Notes: generated by a model from the letters alone, not told the origin. A stretch of 64,000 bases of DNA from Candidatus Pacearchaeota archaeon (GCA_038886195.1 JAVZYK010000001.1:529106-593105), one strand, 5' to 3'; shown: positions 32,228 to 64,000, numbered from the stretch's first letter. Made by a program: numbers and translations.

Positions 32228-32315
32228 GCCTCAGTAGCTCAGCGGTAGAGCGGCTGCCTTGTAATATCGAAAACAAGCAAGCAGTAGGTCGAGGGTTCGA
32301 TTCCCTCCTGAGGCT
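32228..32315 (+). tRNA. tRNA-Thr (anticodon TGT) with a ~16-nt intron at the canonical 37/38 position
   Basis: Acceptor GCCTCAG/CTGAGGC, D-arm GCTC-AGCGGTA-GAGC, anticodon stem GCTGC with loop CTTGTA[A], T-arm GAGGG-TTCGATT-CCCTC. The inserted 'ATATCGAAAACAAGCA' contains ACAAG, complementary to the loop's CTTGT, consistent with a bulge-helix-bulge fold. Confidence 0.6.
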
Positions 32316-40000: not shown

Positions 40001-43000
40001 AATCAATTGAGATGGCAAATTTTGTTAACGAAATTAATGAAATTAATGAATTCTACAATGATTTTGGGTTCAATAAAGTAATAATTAGAGCTAAAGAAGC
40101 GATGACTATAAAAGCTCCTATAAGAAAAGCAGATAATGATTTTATCAACAAAATAGATTTTAATAATTTTGAAAAGATTTCTAATGACGAATTATTTGCA
40201 GTTTTTTATATTGGCGGTGCTGATTATATTGCGATAGTTGAAAGAGCAGAAGGCAACAGATTTAGTATCAAAAGACTTTATCAAATTTATAAACAAGGAA
40301 CTGGTTGGCGTGTAAAAGAATTTTATAATGTTAGTACAACTCCTAGTTTGGCGGCAAAACTTAACGAACTTCAAATTTCTGATATTCAAGAAATCGATGT
40401 AAGTTTATGTAATAATAATGAAATAAAGTCTCCTCATAATAAAGAGATAAAATTCTGGGAGTCTGGACCTTACAACGGATTTGTTGCCTGGATGCCTATA
40501 GATGTTAATAATGGATGGTATATGGCAACGATGAGTTATAGTGGATTAGAAGGAGCGATGATTGCCTGGAAAGAAAATGCAGATATAAATACATTTTGGA
40601 TTTGTAATGTAGGGCCTGACGGCATTCCTAATTTTGATCATACACAAGGACCTAAAGGAGATGATTGTTGTACGCAAGTTGTTTTAGCTACTGGTTTTAT
40701 TCCTGAAATTGCTGGTTGCATTACTCCAGCGTGTTCTGATACTCTTGTAAAAAAAGCAAAAAATTGTGCAGCTAAAGCAATAAGAGATTTTGCAGCAGGC
40801 AATAAAAAAATAGTTACAGAGTGTGGCAATTTTAATTTAGGAAAGCCTCCAAGTGCTGTGCCAGCAAGGCAGTGTGAAGATTTCATGAGTCCAACTGATT
40901 GTAGAATTATGTATAATGTTTGTGATCCTGTGATGTGTCCTGCGTCTAGATGTGATTTTGGTGGCAGGATGTCTGTAGAAAATGTAGTACAATCAGGAAT
41001 TATAGGAAGTATAATGTTGTGCTTGCCGAATTTCGAAGATGGTAAAGGTGTTCTAGTTCCTGTTTGCTTGACAGGAATACATGCAGGTATAGAGAGCTTC
41101 ATTGGAGTTCTAAAAGCTGGTCGTGATTGTTTACAAGAACAATTGAAGAGCGGCAAAACTGTAGGTATTTGTGATCAAATAATGTCTATTTATATTTGTG
41201 AATTTTTTTGGAAGCAAATGGATCCTTTTTTAAAACAAGGAATTCCTGCTATTACAGAATCATTAATAGGAAGGGGTGGTGGAGAATATGTTTTGTTTAG
41301 CGAATCATGGAAACAGAGCATTGATGCAGCAAGATACTTTACAGATTATTATGCTGTAAATTCAGTTAAAGCATTCAAAGCCAGAAGCACAGCACAACTA
41401 GGAACAGAAATTTGTAAAAGATATGCTAGCATAGCTTATCCTACTCAAGCGAAATTCTGGGAAGAACTGGCAAAGCCTGAAAGTCCTACACAAGCCACTG
41501 CATGCTTCCAGGAAATTTCTATGGGAACTGCAACTCCTGAATCGCATTATAAAGTTTTCATTTACATTTTTGCTGGCAATGACCAAGGAGTTTATTATAG
41601 TGTTGTATTAAGAAGACCTGCAGCTCCCGGTTATTATGGACAATTCATTCCAGAAGAATATTTAGTTAAAGACGGATTTGGTTATTTGCCTGCTGGTCAA
41701 TATTTGGCCATATCTCCTGATTTCAGAGCTCCTAGCGGTTATAAAGAAATATGCATAAGACTTAATGATAAAGAAATATGCGGTTTTGGAGATTGTGCTA
41801 GCACTAGTTTCGCTATTCAAGAAATGCAAAATTATTATTTGAAACATCAACTTGAACAGGAAGTTTCTTCAATTAAAGAGTGTGTGAGTGGAAAGCCTAC
41901 GATTATGCCTACTCTGACATTAAATATACAAAGTGCAGTTGAACATGCTTTAGAGCCTCAGTTGTATAGAAGAGGCATTATAAGAGTATGCTCAACTAGC
42001 AATCCTGGAGAAAGCGTCGGTGAAAAAGATAGATGGAAAAAGATAGGTTATTGCGGTGACAAAAATGTTGGCTGTTGGCTTGATATGAATAGTGTAAATG
42101 AAAGTATTAGCGATTTAGGAATTAGAGCAGAAATTTATAATAAGTCAGAAGAGAGAGATCTTGCAAGATTGCTCGAGGAATTTAATTTAAGCACTCCTAA
42201 AGAAAGCCAGAACGCTTTAGACAATCTTGAACCAAAAATTATTAATTTAGAAAAAGAAATTGACGAGTTTATAAAGGAAATAAAAAATAAGAATCCAGAA
42301 GAGCTTAAAAATACCAAAGCACAGATTGAAAATAAAATTAAAGAAATCGATAACAAAATTTTGCCATTAATTAAAGAATTCAAAGCAATTAAAGACAAAT
42401 GTGCAAGAAATGAAGAAAAAGCCAGGGCAGAAAATAACATAGCAAAATTATATGATTTGAGAGCAAGACTTTATGCACAGCCGGAAGTTTTTGTTGTTGA
42501 ATTAACTGCAATAAAAAAGAAAAGTTGTGAAGCTCAAGGAGGTGGATGGTATGAAAAATGTCCTCAAGGATATTTTGAAATAACCGACGCGAGCGATGCA
42601 AATGAATATCCTGGCAAAAAATGTTGCAAGATAATTGAAACAAAAGTTGAAATAGGCGAAACCTTTGATTGGCCTTTAGATGATTATTATTTAATAACTT
42701 CTTGTTATGGCTATAGAACTTTAGACGGAAAAAAAGATTTTCATGATGGAATTGATATTTATGCACCTAAAGGAACTGTAGTTCGTGCGATAGCAAGTGG
42801 AGAAGTTATTAAAGCAGATAATTTTTGTGGAGAAAATAATGTGAATTGCAATAGCGGTTTTGGAAATAGAGTTGTTATAAAACATGCTGATAATTTTTAT
42901 AGCGCTTATCATCATTTAAGTAAAGTTCATGTAAGTGTTAATGATAAAGTAAAAAAAGGAGACAAAATAGGAGAAGTTGGAAATACCGGTTACAGTACTG

Positions 43001-49762: not shown

Positions 49763-49784
49763 ATTTTAAAATCTCAAAGTAGAA

Positions 49785-50681
49785 ATGGAGCACACACTAA
49801 ATGTAAATAATATTTTGGAAAAGAAAAATAAAATTTTAGAAATCTTAAAAAATAAAGGGCCTTCTTTACCAAGCGCTATTTCTAGAGAAATAGGAGTTTC
49901 TTTACTTTTTACTTCAGCCTTACTTAGCGAAATGATTAATGATAAATTGCTGAAATGCAGTTATTTAAAAATAGGAGGTTCTCCTCTGTATTATTTACAG
50001 GGCCAAGAAGCAATGTTAGAAAATTTCACAAAACATTTACAAGCTAAAGAGAGGGAGGTTTTTGATTTATTGAAAGAAAAACAAATTCTAGATGAAGAAT
50101 TGCTTGAACCAGCGCATCGTGTAGCAATTAAAAATATTAAAGATTTTGCTTTTTCATTTAAAATGAATGTTCAGGATAAAGAAAAAACTTTTTGGCGTTA
50201 TCATTTGTTAAGTCAAGAAGATGCTATTGAACTAGTTCAGAAATTATTTAAGAAAGGAGAAAAAAGCGAAGAAATAAAAGAAAAAATTGAAGATAAAGAA
50301 AATATTGAAGAAATAAAAGAAAAAATTGAAAAAATTAAGAAAGATATAAAGCCAAAAGTTTCTAGAAAAAAAAGCAAAATTGAATTTTATGATAGAGTTT
50401 ATGAATGGCTTAGTAAGTTTAATGATTTAGGAATTGATGAAAAAATAAATCAAGAAAATGTTGTTTGTATAATCTCGGCAAAATTTTCTTTTGGTATTAT
50501 AAAATTTTTAGTTGTAGCTAATGATAAAAAAAGAATTAATGAAGCAGATTTAAGTATTGCATATCAACAAGGTCTTTCAAGAAAAATGCCAGTTCTTTTT
50601 TTAACTGGAGGAGAATTAACAAAAAAAGCCAAAGAGCATTTAAAAATGCTAGGAAATTATATATTCGTGAAAGAACTTTAA
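49785..50681 (+). CDS. Hypothetical protein with N-terminal winged-helix-like domain
   Basis: 'LEILKNKGPSLPSAISREIGVSLLFTSALLSEMINDKLLKCSYLKIGGSPLYYLQG' resembles a TFE/RPC34-type winged helix. No zinc ribbon; E/K-rich middle. Confidence 0.3.
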   Translation: MEHTLNVNNILEKKNKILEILKNKGPSLPSAISREIGVSLLFTSALLSEMINDKLLKCSYLKIGGSPLYYLQGQEAMLENFTKHLQAKEREVFDLLKEKQILDEELLEPAHRVAIKNIKDFAFSFKMNVQDKEKTFWRYHLLSQEDAIELVQKLFKKGEKSEEIKEKIEDKENIEEIKEKIEKIKKDIKPKVSRKKSKIEFYDRVYEWLSKFNDLGIDEKINQENVVCIISAKFSFGIIKFLVVANDKKRINEADLSIAYQQGLSRKMPVLFLTGGELTKKAKEHLKMLGNYIFVKEL

Positions 50682-50717
50682 CAAGATTTTTAAAATCTGT
50701 AAACATAATTCTTATAA

Positions 50718-50790
50718 AGCCCTGTAGTATAGCGGTCAAGTATGCTGGCCTTTGGAGCCAGCGGCCCAGGTTCGAATCCTGGCAGGGCTA
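50718..50790 (+). tRNA. tRNA-Gln (anticodon TTG)
   Basis: AGCCCTG acceptor; D-arm GTAT-AGCGGTCAA-GTAT; anticodon stem CTGGC/GCCAG with loop CTTTGGA; T-arm CCAGG-TTCGAAT-CCTGG. The overall pattern is that of archaeal tRNA-Gln. Confidence 0.75.
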
Positions 50791-50873
50791 TTTTTTATTT
50801 TTTCTAAATTATAGTTACAAAAGATTTAAAAAGAAAATTAAATAAAATTATTTACATTATCAAAAAATCTAAA

Positions 50874-51272
50874 ATGGCAACGCTTTATGGACATGGAAGA
50901 GGAAAAGCAGGAAGTCATGCACCTGTACAAGAAAAGCCTTACTGGTTAAAATTTGAACCTAAAGAAGTTGAAGAGCTCGTTGTAAAGATGGCAAGGCAAG
51001 GAATCGATAGCGCAAAAATTGGATTGATTTTAAGAGATAGTTATGGCATTCCTAGTGTAAAGACAATAACTGGAAAGAAAATACAACAAATATTAAAAGA
51101 AAATAAAATAGAAACGCAGCCATTAGAATTAATTTCTTTAGAAAAAAAGTTAAAATCACTTAAAAAACATCTTGAGAAGAATAAAAAAGATATGACCGCT
51201 AAAAGAGGATTACAATTAACAGAAGCTAAAATAAGAAGGCTTAAAAAATATTATGAAAGAAAACAGAAATAG
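50874..51272 (+). CDS. rps15: 30S ribosomal protein S15 (uS15/S13e)
   Basis: 'GHGRGKAGSHAPV...PYWLKFEPKEVEELVVKMARQGIDSAKIGLILRDSYGIP' and the C-terminal 'LQLTEAKIRRLKKYY'. Confidence 0.85.
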   Translation: MATLYGHGRGKAGSHAPVQEKPYWLKFEPKEVEELVVKMARQGIDSAKIGLILRDSYGIPSVKTITGKKIQQILKENKIETQPLELISLEKKLKSLKKHLEKNKKDMTAKRGLQLTEAKIRRLKKYYERKQK

Positions 51273-51290
51273 TTAGAAATCTCGAAGGCT

Positions 51291-52688
51291 TTGGGGAAAA
51301 AGAGGAAAATGCTTGAGAAGGCTGTAGAGAAATTGAAAGAAATTTTTTCAAAAGAAGGAGTTATAAGGATAATAACACATCTTGATACAGATGGACTGAC
51401 TTCTGCAGTTATTTTTTCTGAGGCTTTGAAAAAGAACAAACAGATTTTTTGGATAACAACTGTTAAGCAGCTCGAAGATGAATTTCTTCAAGATTTACGA
51501 CAACAGGCAGAACGACAAAAGTGGAAAGCTCTAGTTTTTCTTGATTTAGGTTCTAGCATGTTAAGCAAATTGAAAGTTTTTAGTACTTATACTGACGTTT
51601 TTGTTATAGATCATCATGAATTAGAACAAAATTTTGATAAATCTATGAACTTAGAAAATTTTTATTTTTTAAGTTCTTCTTTTTATCATGAAAAAATCAG
51701 CGCTTCTTGTTTGACCTATTTATTTGTAAAGAAATTTTTTGATAATAAAAAACTTGCACAAGTTGCAATTATTGGTCTTATCGGAGATGTTCTTGATAAA
51801 AATATTGGCAAGATTGCTAAAGGAATTTTGCAGGATGCTCAAGAGAGCGGCATGCAAATAAAAAAAGGTTTAACTGTGTTTTCGTCTATGAGGCCCGTCC
51901 ACAAAGCTTTGGAATTTTCAAACATTTTCATTCCAGGAGTTACTGGTTATGCTAATGGAGCCTTAGAGATGCTTAAAGAATTAGGAATTGAAGTTAAAAC
52001 AAATCAAGGTTATAGGACTTTACTTGATCTTAATAAAGAAGAACTTTCTAGATTAATTACGGGAATTTTATTGAGACGAATAAATAATGGTCATGATCAA
52101 GAAATTTTAGACAACATATATTTGATAAAAATAGGTTCAAGGCTATTTGATGCGAGAGAAGTAAGTTCTATGATAAATGCTTGCGGAAGGTTTGGTTATA
52201 GCTCTTTGGCAATAGCGTTTTTAAGTGGTTCAAAAAGAGCACAAGAAAAAATAGAGGATGTTTATACTAAATACAGGAGCTATATAATAAGAGCTCTTAA
52301 TCTAGTCAATGGAATGAAAAAGATTCAGGGAGAAGATTTTGTGATAATTAATGCTAAAAATGCTATAAAAGATACAATCATAGGAACTGTAGTAAGTATT
52401 CTTTCTTCTTCTTTTTTATATAAACCGGGAACAATAATTGTAGGAATGGCATATAGAACTGACAATAAAATAAAAGTTTCTGCAAGAATTGTTAAAGGTT
52501 CAGATAGTGAAATTAATTTATATCATCTATTATATTCTATAGTCAGTATAATTGGTGGAGAAGTTGGCGGGCATTCTAATGCTGCTGGTTGTTTAATTTC
52601 AAAAGAAAAAGAACAAGAGTTTTTAGAGCTATTAGAAAAAAAATTGAATGCACAAGAAATAAAACTAGTTGTTAAAGAAAAGCTTTAA
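51291..52688 (+). CDS. DHH-family phosphoesterase, RecJ/Cdc45 (GAN)-like
   Basis: 'IITHLDTDGLTSAVIFSEAL' and the 'VFVIDHH' DHH motif, plus a DHHA1-like C-terminus 'GGHSNAAGC'. S15–RecJ adjacency is common in archaea. Confidence 0.75.
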   Translation: MGKKRKMLEKAVEKLKEIFSKEGVIRIITHLDTDGLTSAVIFSEALKKNKQIFWITTVKQLEDEFLQDLRQQAERQKWKALVFLDLGSSMLSKLKVFSTYTDVFVIDHHELEQNFDKSMNLENFYFLSSSFYHEKISASCLTYLFVKKFFDNKKLAQVAIIGLIGDVLDKNIGKIAKGILQDAQESGMQIKKGLTVFSSMRPVHKALEFSNIFIPGVTGYANGALEMLKELGIEVKTNQGYRTLLDLNKEELSRLITGILLRRINNGHDQEILDNIYLIKIGSRLFDAREVSSMINACGRFGYSSLAIAFLSGSKRAQEKIEDVYTKYRSYIIRALNLVNGMKKIQGEDFVIINAKNAIKDTIIGTVVSILSSSFLYKPGTIIVGMAYRTDNKIKVSARIVKGSDSEINLYHLLYSIVSIIGGEVGGHSNAAGCLISKEKEQEFLELLEKKLNAQEIKLVVKEKL

Positions 52689-52712
52689 AACTATAAGTTT
52701 TCTTAAAGAATT

Positions 52713-52898
52713 ATGAAAGAAATAAGAATTACTAAAAGCAAGTTTGTTAGAGTGAGATGTCCCAAATGTAATGCCGAACAAATCATATTTGGTAAAGCTA
52801 CTACAAATATTAAATGTTTAAACTGCAATTATTTGCTTGCAAAACCAGCAGCAAGCAAGGCAAAAATAAGAGCAAAGGTTCTGGAAGTCTTTAAATAG
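52713..52898 (+). CDS. rps27e: 30S ribosomal protein S27e
   Basis: C4 zinc finger 'VRCPKCNAEQIIFGKATTNIKCLNCNYLL'; 61 aa. Confidence 0.85.
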   Translation: MKEIRITKSKFVRVRCPKCNAEQIIFGKATTNIKCLNCNYLLAKPAASKAKIRAKVLEVFK

Positions 52899-52950
52899 AT
52901 TTTTAGATAAATCTTAATGATATATTAAATTTTTAATAATCGATTTAAAA

Positions 52951-53721
52951 ATGGAAGAAATAGAAAATAAAAAAGAATTTCCAGAAGAAGACGAAGTATT
53001 GTTTGGAACTGTAGATAGAATAACCGGAACAAGTGTTTTTGTAAAATTAGATGATTATAATAAAGAAGGAGTTATTAGTTTTAGTGAGATTGCTCCAGGA
53101 AGAATAAGAAATATTAGAGACTATGTTAGAATTGGACAAAAAATCGTAGTTAAAGTTCTTAGAGTTAATAAAGAAAAGGAGCATATAGATTTATCTTTAA
53201 GAAGAGTAACTGCTAAAGAAAAGAAAGAAATTATTGAAGAGAATAAAAGAGAAAAAGAATTTGAAGCTATATTGAATTTGGTAATAAAAAACAAGAGCAA
53301 GACTAGTTCTATAATAAACGAATTGAAAAGGAAGATAAAATTTAAAGAATTTTTTTCTAAATTCATTTCTGAACCAAAAGAAATAGAGAATTTATTAAAA
53401 AACACGGGTTTAAATGAAGAAGAGTTAAAAAATATTATTGAGATAATGTCTGAGAAAATAAAAGAAAAGAAAGTAGTAGTTAAATCAAAATTTTCTTTAA
53501 ATTGCGACGCTTCTGATGGAATAGAAAGAATAAAAACTTTACTTTTAGATTTAGAAAAAACTGGAGCTAAAATAAGTTATTTAGGAGCTCCAAATTATCT
53601 AATCAGTTTAGAAAGTAAAGATTATAAAGAAGCAAATAAAAAATTAAAAGAATTGTTAGATACATTAACTTTAAAAGCTAAAGAATTTAGTTGTAAATTA
53701 GAAATTTTTAAAGAAAAATAA
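52951..53721 (+). CDS. eif2a: Translation initiation factor 2 alpha subunit (aIF2-alpha)
   Basis: N-terminal S1 domain 'PEEDEVLFGTVDRITGTSVFVKLDDYNKEGVISFSEIAPGRIRNIRDYVRIGQKIVVKVLRVNKEKEHIDLSLRRV', followed by helical and alpha-beta domains. Confidence 0.85.
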   Translation: MEEIENKKEFPEEDEVLFGTVDRITGTSVFVKLDDYNKEGVISFSEIAPGRIRNIRDYVRIGQKIVVKVLRVNKEKEHIDLSLRRVTAKEKKEIIEENKREKEFEAILNLVIKNKSKTSSIINELKRKIKFKEFFSKFISEPKEIENLLKNTGLNEEELKNIIEIMSEKIKEKKVVVKSKFSLNCDASDGIERIKTLLLDLEKTGAKISYLGAPNYLISLESKDYKEANKKLKELLDTLTLKAKEFSCKLEIFKEK

Positions 53722-53742
53722 AAGAAATAAAAAAACAAAAAA

Positions 53743-53907
53743 ATGAGCAAAGAAAACATCAGATGTTTGAGTTGTGGAAAAGAGCTTTTGGAAGACGAGG
53801 GAGTTATTTTTAAATGTCCCTCTTGCGAAAAGAAAATAATAAGATGTAGCAAATGCAGAAAACTCAGCGTTAAATATAAGTGTGAATGTGGTTTCGAAGG
53901 ACCTTAA
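53743..53907 (+). CDS. Small zinc-ribbon protein (4 x CxxC, 54 aa). Not in the ORF track because it is under 60 aa.
   Basis: MSKENIRCLSCGKELLEDEGVIFKCPSCEKKIIRCSKCRKLSVKYKCECGFEGP. It sits exactly between eIF2-alpha and aEF1-beta, the slot often occupied by Nop10 or another small Zn-ribbon protein in archaeal operons. Confidence 0.45.
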   Translation: MSKENIRCLSCGKELLEDEGVIFKCPSCEKKIIRCSKCRKLSVKYKCECGFEGP

Positions 53908-53911
53908 TAAA

Positions 53912-54184
53912 ATGGCAATGTCTATTTTAAAAATAAAAATCATGCCAGTTTCTCCTGAAACTGATCTCGAAAAAATTAAAGAAGCGGCAAGGAAAGATAT
54001 TGAAGAACTTGGAGCTAAACTGCATAATACAGAAATGGAGCCCATTGCGTTTGGCCTAAAAGCTTTAATCTTAACTATATTGTGGCCGGAAGATAAAGAG
54101 TTGGATTTAATAGAAAACGCATTAGGAAAGATTGAAGATGTTAATTCTGTTCAAGTTATAGATTTTAGAAGAGCCATAGGTTAA
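53912..54184 (+). CDS. ef1b: Elongation factor 1-beta (aEF-1B)
   Basis: 'MAMSILKIKIMPVSPETDLEKIKEAA...GAKLHNTEMEPIAFGLKAL' has the typical aEF1B fold signature and is ~90 aa from the internal Met. The track ORF starts earlier at 53882. Confidence 0.7.
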   Translation: MAMSILKIKIMPVSPETDLEKIKEAARKDIEELGAKLHNTEMEPIAFGLKALILTILWPEDKELDLIENALGKIEDVNSVQVIDFRRAIG

Positions 54185-54191
54185 AAATAAG

Positions 54192-54893
54192 ATGTTAACT
54201 GAAGAACAAGTAGAAGAATTAAGAAAAAGGTTATTGAAGCAACTAGAATTGATGGAAGAAACGGAACAAGTAATGATGCTTAAGGAACAAATTAAAAATG
54301 CCAGCAAAGAGGAGTTGGAGGAATTTATTAAATCTCAGATGGCTGTAGCTAAAGAAAATGTTGATGATGCTGGATGTATTTTTTGTCAAATTGTTAAAGG
54401 AAAAATTGAAACAATAAAGATTTACGAAGATGCCGAAATTATTGCATTTCTTGATATTTATCCAGCTTCTATAGGACATGTGCTTATAATGCCAAAAAAG
54501 CATTTCGAAACTATTGAAGAGATTCCTGATATTTTATTGAGTAAATTGTTTATTTTTATAAAAACAATAATGCCTTCTTTTTTGAAAATAACTAAAGCTA
54601 AAGGTTTTAATATCCTTATTTCACAAGGAGAAAAGGCAGGACAAAGAATAAAGCATTTTTATCTAAATTTAATTCCCCGTTATGACGAAGATAATATAAA
54701 TTTAACTTGGAGTCAACTTAAAGTGGATAAAAAAGAATTGGAAATTCTAGGAGAAAATCTAAGAAAAGAAGCTTTGCGAGAACTAGAGAGTAAGCTCGAA
54801 TATGAAAAAACAAAAGCAGAGAAACGCAAAAAAGCAGAAGAGGAGAGCGAAGTCGAGAAAATAATGAAGCATATTAAAAGAAGATTGCCCTGA
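54192..54893 (+). CDS. HIT-family protein with N-terminal coiled coil and a degenerate histidine triad
   Basis: 'CIFCQIVKGKIETIKIYEDAEIIAFLDIYPASIGHVLIMPKKH' and 'GEKAGQRIKHFYLNLIPRY'. The canonical H-x-H-x-H is replaced by H-F-Y-L-N-L. Confidence 0.7.
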   Translation: MLTEEQVEELRKRLLKQLELMEETEQVMMLKEQIKNASKEELEEFIKSQMAVAKENVDDAGCIFCQIVKGKIETIKIYEDAEIIAFLDIYPASIGHVLIMPKKHFETIEEIPDILLSKLFIFIKTIMPSFLKITKAKGFNILISQGEKAGQRIKHFYLNLIPRYDEDNINLTWSQLKVDKKELEILGENLRKEALRELESKLEYEKTKAEKRKKAEEESEVEKIMKHIKRRLP

Positions 54894-55758
54894 TTAGTAA
54901 TATCAATAAATCGCCAAACAAAATGGTACAAATTAGTGAGATTAGAAATACTGGCACAAAAGGAAGGCCATATTTTATCAGAACTTTTTTATTATGTTTT
55001 TTTAATAAAACAATGTCTCTTTTACTTAAGCCGTGAACACTTGGGTTAATTTTTTGATTTTTTAACTTTATTGGTTGAACAAGCCAGTCACCTTCTGTTA
55101 AATTAGAAGGAGAAACTTTTTTTATCATGCTTGTATTTTCAGCAGCTTTTATTGTAATGTAAATGTATGGAAAAGTCAAAGTTAAAATAAAAATTAAAAA
55201 GAAAACATTAAAGAAAAAGGAAATTATTAAAGAAATTGAAGCAAGAATCAAAAAAGAAGTTCTTAATGTTTTTGTTTGATCGAATATTTTTTTAAATTCT
55301 TTAGAAAATTTCTTTTTATTTTTAATTGCAAAGAAAATAACGAAAATAATGCTATAAATGGAACCTATTGTAAAAATGTTGATTAAAAAACCCAATAAGA
55401 ATGGCTCTGAGAAAATATTGACTTGGTTAGGCGTGGTTTTTGATAAATATAAGGGAGTTGTAGCAAAAGCTATTGCTAGAGCAATAAGAAGTTTGGCATC
55501 GCCACCACCAAAAAATTTAGTATAATAAAGGATAGCGCTTAAAGAAAAAAATAGTACGAGAGAAATAATGGCATAAACAAAATAATAAAATTGCAACGTT
55601 ATTAGGGCCGCAAGTCCTCTAATTGTTAGTGCAATTGCTATTAATGAAAAACTTAGCCAATTAGGAACCTCTCTTTTTTTAATATCTGTAATCGAAGCAA
55701 AAATAAGATATGCTGCAGTGATTATTAAAAGCAAAATATCGCTTATTAAAAGGTCCAT
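54874..55758 (-). CDS. A24-family prepilin peptidase (PibD/FlaK/EppA-like)
   Basis: First catalytic Asp region 'ASITDIKKREVPNWLSF', second Asp in 'KFFGGGDAKLLIALAIAF' (the GGGD.KL motif). Polytopic, with a C-terminal extracytoplasmic extension. Confidence 0.6.
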   Translation of the reverse strand: MDLLISDILLLIITAAYLIFASITDIKKREVPNWLSFSLIAIALTIRGLAALITLQFYYFVYAIISLVLFFSLSAILYYTKFFGGGDAKLLIALAIAFATTPLYLSKTTPNQVNIFSEPFLLGFLINIFTIGSIYSIIFVIFFAIKNKKKFSKEFKKIFDQTKTLRTSFLILASISLIISFFFNVFFLIFILTLTFPYIYITIKAAENTSMIKKVSPSNLTEGDWLVQPIKLKNQKINPSVHGLSKRDIVLLKKHNKKVLIKYGLPFVPVFLISLICTILFGDLLILLIRAIFF

Positions 55759-55954
55759 TTTTATTTTTTAATTGTCCTTTCAAAGCCACCTCTTTTATAA
55801 ATTCTATATTTTCTTTTTTTCTTCAAAGCTTTTTTACTTTTTCTTTGTTCTGGAATTGCGTATTCCATAACAAGAGAAAAGATTATATATTAATAAATTT
55901 TAACTTTATAGATCAAAAAAGGCAAAAATTAAAAAAGATGGTGAAAAAAAGAAA

Positions 55955-57232
55955 ATGCCTGATGTCAATCAACCTGTTGGGCCAACTTATAGTATTGGAG
56001 AGTCTTTAAGAGCCTCTTTACCAGCAGGACTCGCAGGAGCAATTATCGGAGCAATAATCGGAGTTTTATTGAGTTTATTTGCAATTTTTAACCTCGGTTT
56101 AAGTGGTTTAATTGGAACTATCATTCTAGCAACCTTTGGTTTGATTATCGGTTTTATAGTTGTCTATATTATAACTTTTGTTTGGTATATATTGCCTTCA
56201 TGGCTAAAGAAACCCGTAACTTATCTTCTTATAATTGTTTTTATTGGTTTAATAATTTGGATCGCAATATTTTTTTGGAGACTTCCTTTGACAGGAGAAT
56301 ATTTGAAATTTGCTTCTCCTGTTTTTGATGGCTTAGCTAAAGGATGGAGAGATTTAAGAACGTCTTGGGGTGCTTGTTTGTATTTGAAACCTCCATGTCC
56401 TTTTCTTGTAGATTGGGAAACGCCCAATGTTCAAAGTGCACAAGAAGAATTGAATATAGACGTTAGATTTTCAGAAGCTAAAATATCTAAGCAAAACGAA
56501 ATATATGTTTTAGTTTCTTTAACCGTTACGAATCCTGAATTGAGTGAATTAATCGTCAAGCCTCGATGTTTTTTGGGAAAGGATAAAGTTCGTGAACTGA
56601 ATGTAGAATCTATGGGTAGTTATGCTAAAGGTGATGAATTTGTTTTTGGAACAACTTCAAGAGGCCAAGAATTGCATACAAGTTTTAGATGTAGTGGCGA
56701 AATATATGAAGCAGGAGATAAGCCCTTATATTCTGACTATCTTGTTGTTGTTCTCGAAAGACCAGTTTCTGTAAAAACTACTTGGCCAGTCCAAATTAAA
56801 AGAGGAGAAGGACCAAATTTAGGATTAGTTAAAAGCACAATGCAATTTAATGCTCCTTATAGCATTGCTTTTGCAAGCGATAATGATATGCCTTTTTTAG
56901 AAGGTAGAGAATATAGTTTTAATATCGTCTTGAAGAGAAGACAAGAAAACGCTAAATTTAAGGAGCTTAATTACATTAGTGTGAAATTTCCTGATGATTT
57001 GATGATAGAATGTAAAGGTTTCGTTGGTTCAGATCATAAATTAGAATTAAGAGAGCACGATTATGAATCCTTAAAGAAAATTGCTCAATATAGCGAAAGC
57101 GAAGACAAATTTTCATGGCCTTGTAAACTTTATGTTTCAGAAGCGCCTCCTCAAGCAGTGTTGGCCCCTGTTAGTTTAGAATCTAAATATGTAGTTTATT
57201 CAGAAAGCAGTGTAAGAATAATTAAATCTTAG
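55955..57232 (+). CDS. Membrane protein with 4 N-terminal TM helices and a large extracellular domain
   Basis: Gly/Ile-rich TM helices in the first ~130 aa, followed by a ~290-aa beta-rich domain. Confidence 0.4.
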   Translation: MPDVNQPVGPTYSIGESLRASLPAGLAGAIIGAIIGVLLSLFAIFNLGLSGLIGTIILATFGLIIGFIVVYIITFVWYILPSWLKKPVTYLLIIVFIGLIIWIAIFFWRLPLTGEYLKFASPVFDGLAKGWRDLRTSWGACLYLKPPCPFLVDWETPNVQSAQEELNIDVRFSEAKISKQNEIYVLVSLTVTNPELSELIVKPRCFLGKDKVRELNVESMGSYAKGDEFVFGTTSRGQELHTSFRCSGEIYEAGDKPLYSDYLVVVLERPVSVKTTWPVQIKRGEGPNLGLVKSTMQFNAPYSIAFASDNDMPFLEGREYSFNIVLKRRQENAKFKELNYISVKFPDDLMIECKGFVGSDHKLELREHDYESLKKIAQYSESEDKFSWPCKLYVSEAPPQAVLAPVSLESKYVVYSESSVRIIKS

Positions 57233-57239
57233 TTAAAAA

Positions 57240-58181
57240 ATGAAAAAGTTCAATATAAAAATAACAAACGTTATTGTAGTTTTGTTAATTTTTATTGTTT
57301 TGATTTTTGTTTCCGGCCAAGAAGGATGCGAGATGCCTGGCAGTAGTGAGAAAACACAGGCAAAAAAAACTGGTGTTGATTTTAATTTGATAACTGGAGT
57401 AGATTATCTAAGTTCTGGCAAAATTATAGAGCAAGGAGAAAGCTTTTATGTTGGAATACATATCGAGAATTATGATAGTAAAGCGAAATCAGGAGAGGTT
57501 TGTATTTATGACGATATTTCTGATGAATATGGAGGCATAAATAGTCAAGGTGAATGTAAACCTTTTATAATTAATGCAGCAACTATAATAAAAAAAGAAA
57601 CAAGCGGAATGATGGGTAAAAAAATAGTAGAAGAAGTTACTCCTGGTAAAGTTGATGTTTATTTTCCTGAAGAAGGTATCTATAAGTATTATGGATTGCC
57701 TTCTCAAAAAGCGCCATGGCAAAGAACTCTTTTTGTTTCGGTTCGTTATAGAGAAAGCTCGCAAATTACAGGCTCTATAAAAGTTCCTAATCCAAGTTAT
57801 GAACAAATAGCTTTGATACAAGAGCCAACACCTCTTTCAATTTCAGTTACTAAATCAATTCATAAGCAACAAGATTCATATAAAGTTAATTTAGATATCC
57901 TTTTAAGCAAAAGAGCTCAATCAAAAATCTATTCTCCCGATTTTAAACAAGAAAACGTTACTGCATTCTATTTAAGACTAGAGCCACAACAGGTTCAATG
58001 TTTTTTGGCAGGAGGAGAGCCGATAAGAAATACAATTTTTATTGAAAACGAAAGACTTATAAAATGTTCTAGTCTCGTATATATGGCTGGCGAACTACAA
58101 CAGACTTTGCCGCTAATAATTGCCCTTGATTATGGAGTAGCTATAGAAAAAAGTTATGGTTTTGGTATAAAAACATTGTAA
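57240..58181 (+). CDS. Secreted/lipoprotein-like protein, paralog A
   Basis: Signal 'VIVVLLIFIVLIFVSGQEGCE', shared with the next gene. Confidence 0.4.
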   Translation: MKKFNIKITNVIVVLLIFIVLIFVSGQEGCEMPGSSEKTQAKKTGVDFNLITGVDYLSSGKIIEQGESFYVGIHIENYDSKAKSGEVCIYDDISDEYGGINSQGECKPFIINAATIIKKETSGMMGKKIVEEVTPGKVDVYFPEEGIYKYYGLPSQKAPWQRTLFVSVRYRESSQITGSIKVPNPSYEQIALIQEPTPLSISVTKSIHKQQDSYKVNLDILLSKRAQSKIYSPDFKQENVTAFYLRLEPQQVQCFLAGGEPIRNTIFIENERLIKCSSLVYMAGELQQTLPLIIALDYGVAIEKSYGFGIKTL

Positions 58182-58292
58182 AAAAAGAATAAAGAAAAAA
58201 GAGGAAAATAAAATGAGCTGCGGAGTTTGTGGAAAAAAGCAAAAAAAGAAGAAAAAGAAATAAGGAAATAAGAAATAAAGAGGAATAAAAAA

Positions 58293-59210
58293 ATGGAAAG
58301 AAAGGTTTTTGTTGCAGTTGTTTTGACTTTGATATTGGTTTTACTTTTTGTTTCTGGACAACAAGGATGCAAAAAAGAAGAAAAAACAACTTTTAATACA
58401 ACTGCTTTGATTGTTAAATTTATAGACGATGCCCCTCCAGTTCAGCTTGTTCCTGGAGAAAAGTACAGAATTTACGCAGAAGTAAAAAATTTAGGAGGAT
58501 ATGATGTAAATCCTGGAAATGCTCATTTTTTCTTAAGCGGCATAGGTGAAAATCTTAAGAATGTTAATTTACATTTGCAAAATAGCAATTTGTTAAACAA
58601 AAAAACAACGATGCAGGAAGGAGGTAAAGAACAAATAATATTTACTAATAATGCTGAAGTTAGTGAGAAGTTGAGTAGTTTGCCAGCTCCTTTTAATTTT
58701 AATATGAGGTTGGATTCTTGTTATAAATACGCAACAATAACTCAGACAGAAGTTTGTGTTGGTAGAGGAGATAATATTTGCAGTATAGCTGGAGAGAAAA
58801 TTGTTAGTGGAAGCAATAGCGCAGCCCCTTTACAAGTTACTAGTCTGAAGGAAAGCGTCCAAGGCAATAAACTATATGTTACATTTTTGATAGAAAATAA
58901 AGGGAATGGCGAAGTATATTTGCCAAATGCGGATTGTGTTAAAATACAAGAACAAAACATTGATGAGAAGTTGAAACAAAACAAAGTTGAATTAGCAATA
59001 GAAGCAGAAGAAGGTTTTAGTTGTAAGCTTCAGTCAACACAGCCTCCTTATGGAACTATAGATAGTTTAAATGGAATAGCTTCTATAGGAACTATAACTT
59101 GTCAAAAAACTTTGACAGAAACCACAGGGCATAAAATACCTTTTAGAATTGTTTTATCATATGTTTATAGAGAAAGTATAACTAAAGGATTAACGATATT
59201 GCCTCCTTAA
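58293..59210 (+). CDS. Secreted/lipoprotein-like protein, paralog B
   Basis: Signal 'VVLTLILVLLFVSGQQGCKKEEK'. Shared features with paralog A are the 'FVSGQ[EQ]GC' motif immediately after the signal-peptide helix, a beta-rich Cys-containing body, and similar length. Confidence 0.4.
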   Translation: MERKVFVAVVLTLILVLLFVSGQQGCKKEEKTTFNTTALIVKFIDDAPPVQLVPGEKYRIYAEVKNLGGYDVNPGNAHFFLSGIGENLKNVNLHLQNSNLLNKKTTMQEGGKEQIIFTNNAEVSEKLSSLPAPFNFNMRLDSCYKYATITQTEVCVGRGDNICSIAGEKIVSGSNSAAPLQVTSLKESVQGNKLYVTFLIENKGNGEVYLPNADCVKIQEQNIDEKLKQNKVELAIEAEEGFSCKLQSTQPPYGTIDSLNGIASIGTITCQKTLTETTGHKIPFRIVLSYVYRESITKGLTILPP

Positions 59211-59325
59211 CTATTTTAAAATGTTAGAATTCTTTAAAAGAATAATTCCTCCTTGGAGCAAAATTTATATTTTAATAGTTTTTTTAGAATTAATTTATTT
59301 AAGAATCTATTTAGCTTAATTTCAA

Positions 59326-59640
59326 TTATTCTAACATTTCTATTTCAACATTAACATCTTTCGGAATCGGCAATCTCATTATGCTATGAAGAACCCGTTC
59401 ATCTGCTGGCAAGTCAATAAGCCTTTTATGGATTCTCATTTCAAATCTATCGAATGTAGCTTTACCATTACCGCATGGACTTTTTCTTGTGGTGATTTTT
59501 AGCCTTTTTGTTGGTAATGGAATAGGGCCTCTAAGAACTATGCCGCTTTTTGAAGCTATCTCTTTAATTGAGCTTATTATTTCATTCATTTTGTCTATAT
59601 CTATACTTGCTAGCTTTATTCTTGTGCGTGCCATTTTCAA
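59326..59640 (-). CDS. rps10: 30S ribosomal protein S10 (uS10)
   Basis: 'ARTRIKLASIDIDKMNEI...IVLRGPIPLPTKRLKITTRKSPCGNGKATFDRFEMRIHKRLIDL'. Confidence 0.85.
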   Translation of the reverse strand: MKMARTRIKLASIDIDKMNEIISSIKEIASKSGIVLRGPIPLPTKRLKITTRKSPCGNGKATFDRFEMRIHKRLIDLPADERVLHSIMRLPIPKDVNVEIEMLE

Positions 59641-59771
59641 ATATTGAAAAAATAAATATGGAGCCTATAAAAAGGTTGCGATTCCAATAACAATCTTAAA
59701 AAAATTAAAATTTATAAAAATTTATAAACTTTATAAACTATTAGATTTTATTAATTTAAGAAATTTAGAAA

Positions 59772-62700
59772 ATGGGAAAAGAGGTAAAAGAAAAAACAAT
59801 TATTTTTTTTATGATCCTTTTTATAATTTTAGCTATAATTTTAATTTTCATTGGTTTTATCAATTTAAAGCCCCATTTTACTGGCAAAGCAATTTCAGTT
59901 GAAAAAGAAAGCTTTGTTATTAGTGAACCAATTAAAGGAACTTTTAATTTAGAATTAAAAGAAGGTGAACTAATTCCTTCAAACACCGAAGTAATTGTAA
60001 CTTTAAAAAAAGATAATAAAAAAATAGTTAAAGAGCTTTCATTGAAAGAACTTGTTGAAATATCAGATTTAAAGGTCGCAGAACAACAAGGAAAATTTTT
60101 TATAGAAAATAAAAAAATTGAAGGTGAAGGTTTTGGTTATGGTTGGCCAGGTCATTATATCGTTTATCCTAATGTTTACTTTCAGTTAAAAGTTTCTAAG
60201 ATTGCTGAAGAAAGTAAAAGTCAAGAAATTGAAGAGCCTTTACCTGAATTGCCTGTTGAACAAGAAGTTGAGCAAGAATCTCAAGAAATAATGTCAGAAC
60301 AAATTGAAGAAGAGCAATCTACAGAACAAGAATCTCAAAAAGAAACATCTCAATCAGAAGAAACAGAGCAATCCATGGAACAAACAGAACAATCTGCAGG
60401 GCAAAATTTAGTTTCAATAACAGCATCTGCTGTTTTTAAAATGATAAAATTCTTTGGGATCTGGAACAGTTTTGCTGTTCTCGAAGAAAATGGAAAATAT
60501 AAAATTATAGAGGCAAGTTGCTCTAATGAAAATCCTTTCTTTTATGATTTAAAAGAAAATGAAAAAGTTGAACTTGTTTCAGGAACCGTTCACACTGAAG
60601 ATAAGAAATTAAAAGACGATGAAGTCAATATTGAAATTAAAAATAATAAAGTTGAAGTTTCAACCAATTATTTCGAAAGCTTTGAAGGATTTGGCGAGGC
60701 TTATTTAAACAAAGAAAAACACTATTTTAGTTTTAATCTTGAAAAATTAAATTTAAAAACAGATGAACCAGGAACTTATGATTTAATTATAACTTTAGTC
60801 TATCGAGGCCAAGAATTGTTGCGAGAAAGTGAAGAGATAGAAATTTTGCCTGGGGCTATTACGATAAAAGTTATTGACAAAGAAGGCAATGTTGAAGACG
60901 AGATTGCTGTTAATAATACAAAAATCAAGTTAAAAATTGGCAAGATAAAAGTTGGACGCGAAATTGAACACGAGCTTGAAATTGAAAAAGAAAATTTAGG
61001 AATAACGGGCAGTGCAATCATCGAGCAACCACTGCCAGAATCAGAAATCAACTTTATTTCGATGCCGGAAGATGTCGTGATTCAGATTGACAAGGTTCCT
61101 GAATATCAGACAGAGGTTTTTGCTATAGAGCCAAGTAAAGACATTGAGATTGAAAGCGCGATAATAACTTTAGAAAAAACAACTGCACAGCCAATAGCAA
61201 GAATCTTGCAGTGTGATGAATGGGACATTGAAGAATTTAAGTGTAATGGCGAATGGAAAGATTCTGGTTTGGAGTTTTTGGATAATGGAACTCACGTTTC
61301 TTTTACAACAAACCACTTCACTGCTTACATAGGCGAAAGCAACATGACTTGTCCTTATTATGTTAATGAAGATGTTGTGCTTGTGAGCAACGTTTCTTGC
61401 AATGGCACTGCCTTTATAATCAATGCCGATGATGTTACGATTGATTGTCAAGGTTATACTATAAATTATGGCATAACAAGTTCTGGCTATGGAATAAGCA
61501 ATAATGGCTTTGATAACATTGCAATTAGAAATTGTGTTATTAATGGAGGCGATTATGCTGATAGTTCAATTTATCAGACAGGCTCTGCAGATAATTTTAC
61601 AATCATGAATAACAATCTTTATTCTACTGCCATTCATACTTTAGATTTGCGAGAGCCACATAACAGCTTTATTTACAATAATACAATTTATGGCCGCATT
61701 TACATTGAGACTGGCTCGAATAATATTTTTGAAGGAAATATTATTGAGGGCAATGACTACCAATACTTTGGCGGAACTGATTATGATATAATTAACAATA
61801 AATTTTATTCAGAATCGATAGAACTTGATACTTATTCTGTTTATTTTGCATACAACTATATTGAAGACGCTGTTTCAGACAATACTGGTAGTGCAGTTTA
61901 TTTGGCAAATCACGAGGGAGGAAACTATGTCATTTTCAACAACACAATTTTAGTTTATGCAGATGGTGATAAAGGAATATACTTGGATAGAGTAGTAGAA
62001 TTGGCCGAAACCAATATAAGTTATAATAACATAACAGCCTATTGCGATGCTTGTAAAGGCATTGTTATTGACTATCCTAGTAACGTTCATATTGAAAACA
62101 ACGCCATTGAGACTTTTGGCAGCGCAATTGAATGGACAATGGACGGCTTGAAAAATAGTTATGGTCTTGTGCTTCGTTATGCTAGCTCAGATGGTTTTAG
62201 ATATATAACTAATAATGCAATCACAACTCATGGCGTTGGAGCTTCTGGGATTTATCTTTATGAAACACGTAACTGGAACGGCCCCGGCAGGAATGTTTTC
62301 CGCGATAATTTCATAGTAACAGAAAAAGGCTACGGCTTTGAGATTAGCGGAGATTGTGACGATCCTTATTCAAGTTATCCGAGCGATATTGATACAAGCA
62401 ACTTAGTTGAAGGCAAACCAGTTTATTATTATTGTAATGTAAGCAATACTGAGATAAGTGACTTGGATGCAGGGCAAATTATGGTAGGGCAAACAGCGAC
62501 TTGGCCTAATCCTTCAAATTTCACTTTGAAAAATGTTGCTTCTGAAGATGGAATAATGCTTATTGACGGCGTTGAAGGTGTCAACATTACAGAATCAACC
62601 ATTAACACAAACAATCAAGAAGGCGTTGCTGCAATTTACATAAAATATGCGGGTGGCTCTAACATCTACAATAATGAATTAACAGGAAATTATTATGGAG

Positions 62701-64000
62701 TTTATGATGAAAGTGGCAATAACTATGTGCATGACAATAATATTTCAAATAACGAGTATGGCGTAGTAGAAAGAGAAGCGTCTTGGTCACAAATTTATTC
62801 TAATGTCATGGATTCAAATAATATTGCTGTATTACTAAACTCAACTTATTCAGGTGGCGGTGGTGGCGGTGGCACAAGTTATCATAATATATCTTTCAAC
62901 AACATTTCAGGCGGCAATTACGGAATTTATTTGAGCGACGAAGACAACAACATTGTTGAGGGGAATACTATCGATAATGTTGACTATGCTTTATACATTT
63001 ATGGCACTCGTTCTGAACAAACCGGAAACAATCAGATTTTAAATAACAATATAACTAATAGTAATGTTTATGATTTCTATACTTTATATTTAAACAATCC
63101 CGGATTCGGAGACGATATCATTACTAACTTAAAAACAGACAATGTTGTTTCTAGTTTGCTTGTTAGAAATATTGCATTAAAAGCAACAACAAGCCCTGCG
63201 CCTGATCCATCGGGATGGCAGAATATCGGCAAGTTTTTAGAAATAAACAACAATACAGAGAATTCTTGGCTGTTGTTAAACATAAGCTATCTTGATTCTG
63301 AAATTGGCTCGATAAATGAATCAACCTTGCGCTTGTGGAAATATAATGGTTCGTGGCATCAGGTTGATAGTGATGTTGATATTGACAATAATGTTGTTTA
63401 TATGAACAACGCTGAGCCGCCTTCTAGTGTTTATGCTGTGATGGGCGAAGGCGGCGCAATTGATGATGAAGCGCCTCGATATAGTCAAGACAATGACAAT
63501 TCAACTGGAAGCGTTGTTCAAGGCAAAACAGTTAAGGTTTATGTTTATTGGCAAGACAATGTTGGCTTGAGCCATGCAATTTTCAGAACAAATGAATCAG
63601 GAACGTGGCAAAATGTTTCTATATGTAGTTTTTCAGGCGCAAACGGATGGTGTAATGCAACTATTGACACGACAGGAGATGCAGGCAAAACAATCTGCTG
63701 GAACCAATATGCTAATGACACAAGCAATAACTGGAACACAACAATGTCAGAAACATTACATTGCTTCAGAGTCACCACTTCTGGCGGAGGCGGAGGTGGT
63801 GGCGGAGGAGCTTATTGTGGCGACGGAATCTGTAACAATAATGAAAACTGCACTACTTGTCCAGAAGATTGTCATAGTTGCGGTGACGGCTGCTGTAGTC
63901 CTGAATATGGTGAGAGTTACAGCAATTGTTGGCAAGATTGCTGCTATCCAGAAGGTGTCAATAGGCCTGTTTTGCCATTACATGTTTGCTGTCCTGGTTT
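59772..64000 (+). CDS. Giant secreted/membrane-anchored protein with parallel beta-helix (PbH1-like) repeats, 5' portion only (more than 1409 aa; runs off the window end)
   Basis: ATG at 59772 is followed by the signal anchor 'IIFFMILFIILAIILIFIGF'. Reading by eye, the frame stays open to nt 64000. An acidic E/Q/S-rich linker precedes many repeats of the form 'N..I.NN.I....GI.L' (e.g. 'IAIRNCVINGG', 'FTIMNNNLYST', 'YVIFNNTILVYADGDKGIYL', 'NNITAYCDACKGIVIDY'). Poly-Gly linkers (GGGGGGG) and a terminal Cys-rich segment 'YCGDGICNNNENCTTCPEDCHSCGDGCCSPEYG' follow. Absent from the ORF track because it has no in-window stop. Confidence 0.6.
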   Translation, partial: MGKEVKEKTIIFFMILFIILAIILIFIGFINLKPHFTGKAISVEKESFVISEPIKGTFNLELKEGELIPSNTEVIVTLKKDNKKIVKELSLKELVEISDLKVAEQQGKFFIENKKIEGEGFGYGWPGHYIVYPNVYFQLKVSKIAEESKSQEIEEPLPELPVEQEVEQESQEIMSEQIEEEQSTEQESQKETSQSEETEQSMEQTEQSAGQNLVSITASAVFKMIKFFGIWNSFAVLEENGKYKIIEASCSNENPFFYDLKENEKVELVSGTVHTEDKKLKDDEVNIEIKNNKVEVSTNYFESFEGFGEAYLNKEKHYFSFNLEKLNLKTDEPGTYDLIITLVYRGQELLRESEEIEILPGAITIKVIDKEGNVEDEIAVNNTKIKLKIGKIKVGREIEHELEIEKENLGITGSAIIEQPLPESEINFISMPEDVVIQIDKVPEYQTEVFAIEPSKDIEIESAIITLEKTTAQPIARILQCDEWDIEEFKCNGEWKDSGLEFLDNGTHVSFTTNHFTAYIGESNMTCPYYVNEDVVLVSNVSCNGTAFIINADDVTIDCQGYTINYGITSSGYGISNNGFDNIAIRNCVINGGDYADSSIYQTGSADNFTIMNNNLYSTAIHTLDLREPHNSFIYNNTIYGRIYIETGSNNIFEGNIIEGNDYQYFGGTDYDIINNKFYSESIELDTYSVYFAYNYIEDAVSDNTGSAVYLANHEGGNYVIFNNTILVYADGDKGIYLDRVVELAETNISYNNITAYCDACKGIVIDYPSNVHIENNAIETFGSAIEWTMDGLKNSYGLVLRYASSDGFRYITNNAITTHGVGASGIYLYETRNWNGPGRNVFRDNFIVTEKGYGFEISGDCDDPYSSYPSDIDTSNLVEGKPVYYYCNVSNTEISDLDAGQIMVGQTATWPNPSNFTLKNVASEDGIMLIDGVEGVNITESTINTNNQEGVAAIYIKYAGGSNIYNNELTGNYYGVYDESGNNYVHDNNISNNEYGVVEREASWSQIYSNVMDSNNIAVLLNSTYSGGGGGGGTSYHNISFNNISGGNYGIYLSDEDNNIVEGNTIDNVDYALYIYGTRSEQTGNNQILNNNITNSNVYDFYTLYLNNPGFGDDIITNLKTDNVVSSLLVRNIALKATTSPAPDPSGWQNIGKFLEINNNTENSWLLLNISYLDSEIGSINESTLRLWKYNGSWHQVDSDVDIDNNVVYMNNAEPPSSVYAVMGEGGAIDDEAPRYSQDNDNSTGSVVQGKTVKVYVYWQDNVGLSHAIFRTNESGTWQNVSICSFSGANGWCNATIDTTGDAGKTICWNQYANDTSNNWNTTMSETLHCFRVTTSGGGGGGGGGAYCGDGICNNNENCTTCPEDCHSCGDGCCSPEYGESYSNCWQDCCYPEGVNRPVLPLHVCCPG

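Follow-up and report, generated by a model that had tools for sequence, protein, structure and literature searches.

A large modular surface protein of Pacearchaeota: a putative glycan-binding adhesin with a beta-helix exchanged between near-clonal strains

How DPANN archaea recognize their hosts and hold on to them is still an open question, and hardly any Pacearchaeota have been cultivated. Large archaeal surface proteins, some of them with parallel beta-helix repeats, have been implicated in symbiotic attachment; these include the adhesin-like proteins of Methanobrevibacter and the SPEARE giants of Nanohaloarchaea, and the SPEARE proteins also carry protease and nuclease domains. In phage tailspike proteins (TSPs; P22, HK620, Sf6 and the CBA120 TSPs), a long right-handed beta-helix with conserved ends serves as an exchangeable central specificity module. 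In Nanobdella, a cultivated DPANN episymbiont, signal-bearing and sequon-rich extracellular proteins with parallel beta-helix (pectin-lyase) and Ig-like folds have been proposed as host-interaction factors for host-surface recognition, attachment or degradation (10.1101/2023.10.27.564410). Host attachment is unusually strong in Pacearchaeota, whose metabolism is minimal (PMC7906910), and in populations of Nanoarchaeota the surface proteins are the most diversified genes (PMC6142677). Here, a giant gene that begins at position 59772 (+) of a 64,000-nucleotide stretch of a Candidatus Pacearchaeota genome (GCA_038886195.1, JAVZYK010000001.1:529106-593105; referred to as the window, whose own coordinates are used throughout) was analyzed. 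Its product is read, with modest confidence, as a large modular surface protein of Pacearchaeota, a putative glycan-binding adhesin with exchangeable specificity modules. The protein is of an extracellular type, N-terminally targeted, enriched in sequons, disulfide-rich and modular, it contains a CASH beta-helix, and its gene is syntenic within the lineage.

Frame 1 from the ATG at 59772 remains open for 1409 codons, with zero stops up to the window end at 64000. One stop per approximately 12.6 codons is expected at the composition of the window (30% GC), and therefore the probability that such a frame arose by chance is about 1e-51. An earlier note on this DNA had described an open frame that was absent from the six-frame track, and had named a stop codon on careful translation as the observation that would speak against it. 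The frame is indeed open, and it is missing from the open reading frame (ORF) list because this list omits ORFs that run off the source. The same note was mistaken in calling the gene unannotated and in placing it at a contig end. A search of a large protein collection matched the translation with 100% identity over 100% of the query to MEM4153137.1 (P0001), a public 1880-aa protein that was auto-annotated in GenBank as "NosD domain-containing protein" and that is encoded on a 620-kb contig of a Candidatus Pacearchaeota metagenome-assembled genome (MAG). The window (59772..64000, +) holds the first 1409 of the 1880 codons (75%), and only the window edge cuts off the last 471 aa. An exact DNA search with the last 68 bases of the window returned 0 matches in the GTDB representative genomes.

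The central part of the protein (aa 520-1119; 61329..63128, +) is a right-handed parallel beta-helix of the CASH/NosD type with approximately 60 short strands, as indicated by Pfam matches, an AlphaFold2 (AF2) model, profile comparisons, motif periodicity and Foldseek matches to viral structures. The only Pfam families found in the protein were NosD (PF05048; E 3.6e-14, 53.2 bits against a gathering cut-off of 23.6) and Beta_helix (PF13229; E 1.8e-11, 44.3 bits against a gathering cut-off of 25.9). Beta_helix/NosD matches above the gathering threshold were also present in 5 homologues, while all segments outside the helix gave zero or sub-threshold matches in Pfam and NCBIfam. The AF2 model (m330dc7caff66; aa 500-1330, 12 sequences) had a mean predicted local distance difference test (pLDDT) score of 76.9 and a predicted template modelling (pTM) score of 0.70, and the pLDDT was mostly 85-96 across aa 519-1100, where the short strands are located. 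A right-handed parallel beta-helix had been proposed from the sequence, with structure modelling named as the step at which the proposal could fail; modelling instead produced a confident helix. Comparison of the family profile with solved structures matched the distal helix to NosD (7o0y, 9.4e-18) and the proximal helix to the AlgG epimerases (approximately 1e-8), and this homology assigns the helix to the CASH type.

In terms of its length, the helix is shorter than was first thought. The NNxI-like motif occurred 23 times in aa 520-1115, at a median spacing of 22 residues, compared to 8.05 ± 2.7 times in shuffled sequences; the rest of the protein has only 5 copies. Simple autocorrelation revealed no clean repeat period, whereas the motif spacing did. 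Because the motif is concentrated in aa 520-1115, the helix comprises approximately 600 aa, and not the more than 900 aa of repeats that the earlier note had claimed, although the fold and the repeat spacing themselves are real. The regions at aa 213-519 and 1120-1337 lie outside the helix and form other domains rich in beta-strands. A conserved 'NLVEGKPVYYY' insertion is located inside the helix at aa ~860-920. Two poly-glycine runs had been described as hinges; the Gly7 run at aa 1028-1034 (62853-62873) is a loop within the helix, and only the second, at aa 1338-1346, can be regarded as a hinge.

Foldseek against the PDB returned no match at E <= 1e-3, and the best weak matches were to tailspikes and GH28 proteins, with the Dettilon tailspike at the top (E 2.3e-3) and TM-scores of 0.29 or lower. 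Against BFVD, a set of predicted viral structures, there were 30 matches at E <= 1e-3, which consisted of generic beta-helix proteins and tailspikes with TM-scores of 0.09-0.26; the tailspike matches were at 1e-4 to 1e-3. A single-sequence PDB search yielded only low-complexity noise.

To compare strains, the window was aligned by blastn, and its proteins by BLASTP, with the corresponding locus of a sister strain (L001, GCA_038885395.1). The two DNA sequences are 99.85% identical over window positions 49771-61469, with 17 mismatches in 11,699 bp. The next 1698 bp of the window (61470-63167) do not match, at the DNA level, the 711 bp found in their place in the sister strain, and identity resumes at 97.25% from position 63168. 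This strain-variable cassette (aa 567-1132; 61470..63167, +) is replaced in the sister strain by an unrelated beta-helix of 237 aa. At the protein level, aa 1-566 of the two alleles are identical and aa 1134-1795 are nearly identical, while the two helix cores share no more than 36% identity and the C-terminal ends (85 and 102 residues) share 32%. The helix and the tip of the protein are thus mosaic between near-clonal strains. The long cassette type of the window is common to the orthologues P0003-P0006 (48-64% identity), and the cassette of the sister strain is not close to any of the orthologues compared. The orthologues recovered by a metagenome scan were all distant, and no additional near-identical allele was among them.

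The junction of the tip is marked in the sister strain by a 68-bp direct repeat (14300-14367 and 16022-16089 of its locus; 67/68 identical), of which the first copy lies inside the gene and the second lies 3' of it. The repeat flanks the alternative tip and a 423-aa gene with a weak Por_Secre_tail match, and it has the appearance of a scar left by recombination or insertion. An orphan fragment 3' of the gene represents a third variant of the tip, now decayed. Neither the window nor the 10 kb on either side of the gene in the sister strain contained a silent donor copy of either cassette. A diversity-generating retroelement (DGR) target was considered and rejected: a near-identical 68-bp junction followed by general divergence is not the DGR pattern, and there was no reverse transcriptase among the Pfam-annotated neighbours within 10 kb on either side of the gene in L001 and L002. 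The number of helix-plus-sandwich units also varies among orthologues, from 1 (P0001) to 2 (P0004) and 3 (L008), and a common junction motif stands at the start of every unit. The syntenic orthologue at L008 (5020-11276, +) exceeds 2085 aa and has a very long N/E/T-rich linker followed by three tandem helix-plus-sandwich units, the later of which each open with 'C.G....FTCGE.I.ESCTM......G.CFTIGADDIIVDG'.

The base composition of the gene is uneven. The GC content at third codon positions (GC3) is 0.27-0.34 in the gene body (60408-64000), compared to 0.19-0.22 in the neighbouring genes and 0.14 in the first 212 codons of the gene itself. This contrast suggests that much of the gene body may have been imported from a relative with higher GC content. 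The alternative cassette of the sister strain has a GC3 of 0.21, which is typical of the genome.

The N-terminal part of the protein begins with a hydrophobic helix (aa 10-30; 59799..59861, +), which reaches a Kyte-Doolittle maximum of 3.49 at aa 10-28 (19-residue window) and is the sole strong hydrophobic segment of the 1880 aa. A conserved motif, [FIL]-[TD]-G-[KR]-[AV], is visible in homologues just after it. The signal-anchor noted earlier is therefore present as a hydrophobic helix, which may be either a signal anchor or a signal peptide, uncleaved or cleavable. It is followed by a membrane-proximal domain, D1 (aa 41-142; 59892..60197, +), which is kept in all orthologues and has no significant Pfam match, and by a low-complexity spacer (aa 143-212; 60198..60407, +). 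As the earlier note had observed, this spacer is acidic and rich in E (33%), Q (19%) and S (14%); it varies among orthologues in composition and in length, from approximately 60 to more than 250 aa. The subsequent beta-rich domains (aa 213-519, ending in '...THVSFTTNHFTAYIG'; 60408..61328, +) are conserved in the family and are 38-59% identical to L002 and L007-L009, with weak, sub-threshold Pfam matches. One of these matches was to GPS (PF01825) at aa 478-519 (61203-61328), with 13.7 bits against a cut-off of 22.5 and an E value of 0.092. Of the four Cys positions of GPS, three are occupied by other residues. The pattern 'C..W...W...HFTAY' is conserved in 6/7 orthologues, and this stretch is probably the recurrent terminal strand of a beta-sandwich. 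Autoproteolysis of the GAIN/GPS type is unsupported in view of the sub-threshold score and the loss of three of the four Cys positions.

That the protein is extracellular can reasonably be inferred from its N-terminal hydrophobic helix, its Cys-rich modules and the enrichment of N-glycosylation-type sequons, of which there are 37 compared to 23.5 ± 4.1 expected (z ~3.3), with none in the first 300 aa. The protein does not show the features of PGF-CTERM/archaeosortase sorting (PGF-pre-PGF, TIGR04213), as it ends in '...SSSNWTQI' and has no C-terminal hydrophobic segment.

Two beta-sandwiches follow the helix. The first (aa 1120-1227; 63129..63452, +), with AF2 strands at model residues 634-727, gave no Pfam match and no NCBIfam match at E <= 5, and it follows every helix unit in the family, recurring in P0004, P0007 and L008. 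The second (aa 1234-1337; 63471..63782, +) is predicted to be Ig-like from AF2 strands with a pLDDT of 50-70 and from Ig/scFv-type Foldseek matches over approximately 200 columns, both of which are weak. A Gly9 hinge, visible as a glycine run in the sequence (aa 1338-1346; 63783..63809, +), leads into a C-terminal module of 534 aa (aa 1347-1880), the start of which lies in the window (63810..64000, +); the module was delimited by an alignment (A2), by homologues of approximately 650 aa and by an exhaustive profile search. The terminal CxxC-rich module that had been noted is borne out by 13 Cys in the last 77 aa within the window, with CxxC at 1360 and 1367, and the whole module contains 34 Cys. 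Its order is Cys-rich repeats, an FN3-like domain, a second Cys-rich block and a tip of approximately 125 aa, the latter three being located outside the window. The FN3-like domain is possible, as a PDB fold search of the model gave weak FN3 matches of approximately 80 residues.

The Cys-rich repeat of this module, CG[DN]GxC...CPxDC (~42 aa), occurs in hundreds of proteins, which often carry 5-15 copies, and the whole module also occurs in N-terminally anchored Pacearchaeota proteins of approximately 650 aa. The exhaustive search also found the tip domain by itself, in proteins of 90-230 aa that form dozens of clusters. An example from a Kamchatka Pacearchaeota MAG (L006, 7851-8405, +) is a 184-aa protein that consists of a transmembrane anchor, a short linker and the ~125-aa tip, and that carries an identical 'PYFISATQDWDRWTYVGKVPE' stretch. 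The module was seen only in Pacearchaeota genomes and in one contig binned as WOR-3, and it had no relative in the viral contigs of IMG/VR, which were scanned with this module. The WOR-3 contig (L005, JBBILZ010000057.1, from a candidate division WOR-3 bacterium MAG) is 13.8 kb in length and encodes a Pacearchaeota-type C-terminal module with 49% identity; it may be either a mis-binned archaeal contig, which is likely, or a lateral transfer.

Compared with the described systems, the giant protein resembles the Nanobdella proteins in their described features, and these come from another phylum-level lineage. The Nanobdella proteins were detectable by structure prediction only, whereas the giant protein matches Pfam Beta_helix/NosD, and neither a constant Cys-rich/tip module nor a cassette swap has been described for them. 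It shares with the phage tailspikes the long helix, the conserved ends, the exchangeable centre and the fold matches; in contrast to these, it is encoded on the chromosome among ribosomal-protein genes, and its N-terminus carries a membrane helix where the tailspikes have a particle-binding domain. It shares homologous CASH-type repeats with NosD over approximately 170 residues, but it is approximately 4 times as large as NosD, its flanking domains are unrelated, and it lacks a NosFY/NosZ context. Its proximal helix rungs are shared with AlgG/AlgE (4nk6, 4ozz, 2pyg), and both are grouped here as carbohydrate-active CASH beta-helices. With the SPEARE and Methanobrevibacter proteins it has in common the general type of a large archaeal surface protein, and it has no protease and nuclease domains of the SPEARE type.

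If the protein acts as an adhesin, its hydrophobic helix would direct it to the Sec pathway, followed by membrane anchoring or by cleavage at the conserved TG[KR]A motif. D1, the variable acidic spacer and the pre-helix beta domains would form a stalk that reaches beyond the surface layer (S-layer). The central CASH helix would then bind, and possibly process, a surface glycan of the host or substrate, as its fold family suggests. The Gly hinge, the disulfide-rich repeats and the lineage-specific ~125-aa tip may constitute a second recognition or attachment head, which is common to many smaller anchored proteins. The helix core and tip are exchanged as cassettes by what would be recombination at the conserved junctions, and such exchange would allow near-clonal strains to display different specificities. 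Glycan binding with exchangeable specificity fits the strong host attachment of Pacearchaeota (PMC7906910), the proposed role of the Nanobdella proteins (10.1101/2023.10.27.564410) and the diversification of nanoarchaeal surface proteins (PMC6142677). Several points weigh against it. Beta-helices of this superfamily are enzymes as often as binders, and strain-variable tailspikes are both. The N-terminal helix may be an anchor or may be cleaved, which leaves the cell-proximal end uncertain. The AF2 model of the C-terminal module is poor (pLDDT 58). The cassette comparison involves two MAG assemblies, in which chimerism from strain mixtures is possible, though each allele is an uninterrupted ORF on a long contig.

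The earlier note had named surface adhesins and glycan depolymerases as frequent roles of such proteins. It is possible, though less probable than adhesion, that the protein is a surface-anchored or secreted enzyme that depolymerizes or modifies polysaccharides (a lyase, hydrolase or epimerase). It would then digest host capsule, S-layer glycan or an environmental polymer for access or sugars, with the cassette setting the substrate. The homology of the proximal helix to the AlgG/AlgE mannuronan C5-epimerases, the fold matches to tailspikes, pectate lyases and polygalacturonases, and a cassette variability like that of depolymerase tailspikes all point in this direction. The same genome also encodes a 2454-aa protein with a wall-lytic Peptidase_M23 domain (1.7e-27), and lytic surface proteins are therefore part of its repertoire. 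However, no pectate-lyase or GH28 family was matched at E <= 1 in Pfam or NCBIfam by the protein or its homologues, nor was any other lyase or glycoside hydrolase (GH) family; the PDB fold search gave only the weak matches described above, and no conserved catalytic constellation was identified. DPHD is the catalytic motif of the AlgG/AlgE helix groove. The AlgG stretch 'YGIDPHDRS' aligns to the family consensus 'gyGIdNS.gf' and to 'GYGISNNGF' in the giant protein, so that S-N-N-G stands at the DPHD position; the AlgG catalytic motif is not retained, and catalysis of the AlgG type was rejected.

A role in envelope architecture rather than recognition, as an S-layer-associated, sheath or fibre protein, appears unlikely. 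Such a role would suit a large, sequon-rich, all-beta protein with Ig-like domains, as are many archaeal envelope proteins, that is encoded by a conserved, syntenic core gene, and Foldseek gave a weak match to the S-layer protein 7ptp (E 0.057). The protein matched no S-layer family in Pfam, however, and a separate gene with an S_layer_C domain is located 8 kb away in the sister strain. This separate gene makes the envelope role less likely, as does the fact that near-clonal strains differ in their entire central domain; this difference and the presence of 1-3 helix units fit a lattice protein poorly. The GenBank name raises the question of a genuine NosD, the periplasmic accessory of NosDFY that matures nitrous-oxide reductase, and the Pfam and 7o0y matches are strong. 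Even so, this function was rejected and is given almost no credence: the NCBIfam family model TIGR04247 scored 25.7 bits against a cut-off of 300, the match spans only ~170/1880 residues of an entirely different architecture, and no nosZ, nosF or nosY was found nearby among the neighbours in the window, L001 and L002. The proposal that the giant ORF is an artefact, namely a pseudogene, a misassembly or a chance ORF, could draw on the MAG origin of the sequence and on the atypical GC3 of the gene; it is effectively refuted by the stop-free frame, by intact full-length orthologues at the same locus in at least 5 genomes and by the confident folded model.

With the adhesin as the favoured interpretation, the protein is a real but ordinary DPANN surface beta-helix protein, already deposited and auto-annotated, and big beta-helix ORFs are common in archaeal and DPANN genomes. 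What is added here is the strain-level cassette exchange and an uncharacterised, lineage-specific tip module. The locus is a concrete candidate host-specificity factor, as it is syntenic and has constant ends, a swapped helix and tip, and flanks that are 99.85% identical; two alleles in one genetic background thus provide a natural experiment. On a bolder and doubtful reading, the gene would be a host-range determinant and thus the cellular counterpart of a receptor-binding protein in phages. A constant stalk would carry an exchangeable CASH cassette and ~125-aa tip, both swapped by homologous recombination among strains and paralogues, and the tip would represent a new fold and define a family of DPANN attachment proteins across the lineage. 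The recombination junctions proposed as part of this tentative scheme are 'CNGTAFIINA', 'LKATTSPA' and 'PYFISATQDWDRWTYVGKVPE'.

The genomic context is archaeal. The window is DPANN-like, with approximately 30% GC, and encodes TFB, aIF2-alpha, EF-1-beta, a tRNA-splicing endonuclease, the ribosomal proteins S8e, S10 and S15, and Peptidase_A24. The giant gene is preceded in a conserved order by Peptidase_A24 (-), three secreted or membrane proteins of 425, 313 and 305 aa, and S10 (-). This gene order recurs in L001, L002 and L008 and partly in L007, down to approximately 40% identity, and it is found in at least 5 Pacearchaeota genomes, while the genes 3' of the giant gene vary from locus to locus. 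The three secreted or membrane proteins (55955-59210, +, and 54874-55758, -) adjoin the Peptidase_A24 prepilin peptidase. No family could be assigned to them, with a weak CARDB match (1.1e-3) as the only hit, and the 313- and 305-aa proteins have signal-like N-termini that end in 'VSGQ[EQ]GC'.

Upstream of the giant gene, three TTTATAAA elements that resemble TATA boxes were recognized by regular expression and sequence reading at 61, 51 and 42 nt 5' of the ATG (59711..59737, +). They are spaced 9-10 bp apart, and the triplication is unusual. Their match to the archaeal TATA consensus suggests that this stretch is a putative archaeal promoter region.

Two further observations were made elsewhere in the window. 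The 2454-aa ORF is located at 37084-44448 (+) and has a signal-like N-terminus, with the Peptidase_M23 domain at aa 1886-1987; as this domain is of the peptidoglycan-endopeptidase type, its occurrence in an archaeon is a hint that the host or prey may be bacterial. An 88-nt tRNA at 32228-32315 (+), reported as 'tRNA-???' by ARAGORN and scored at 63.9 bits by the Rfam tRNA model, is probably an intron-containing archaeal tRNA.

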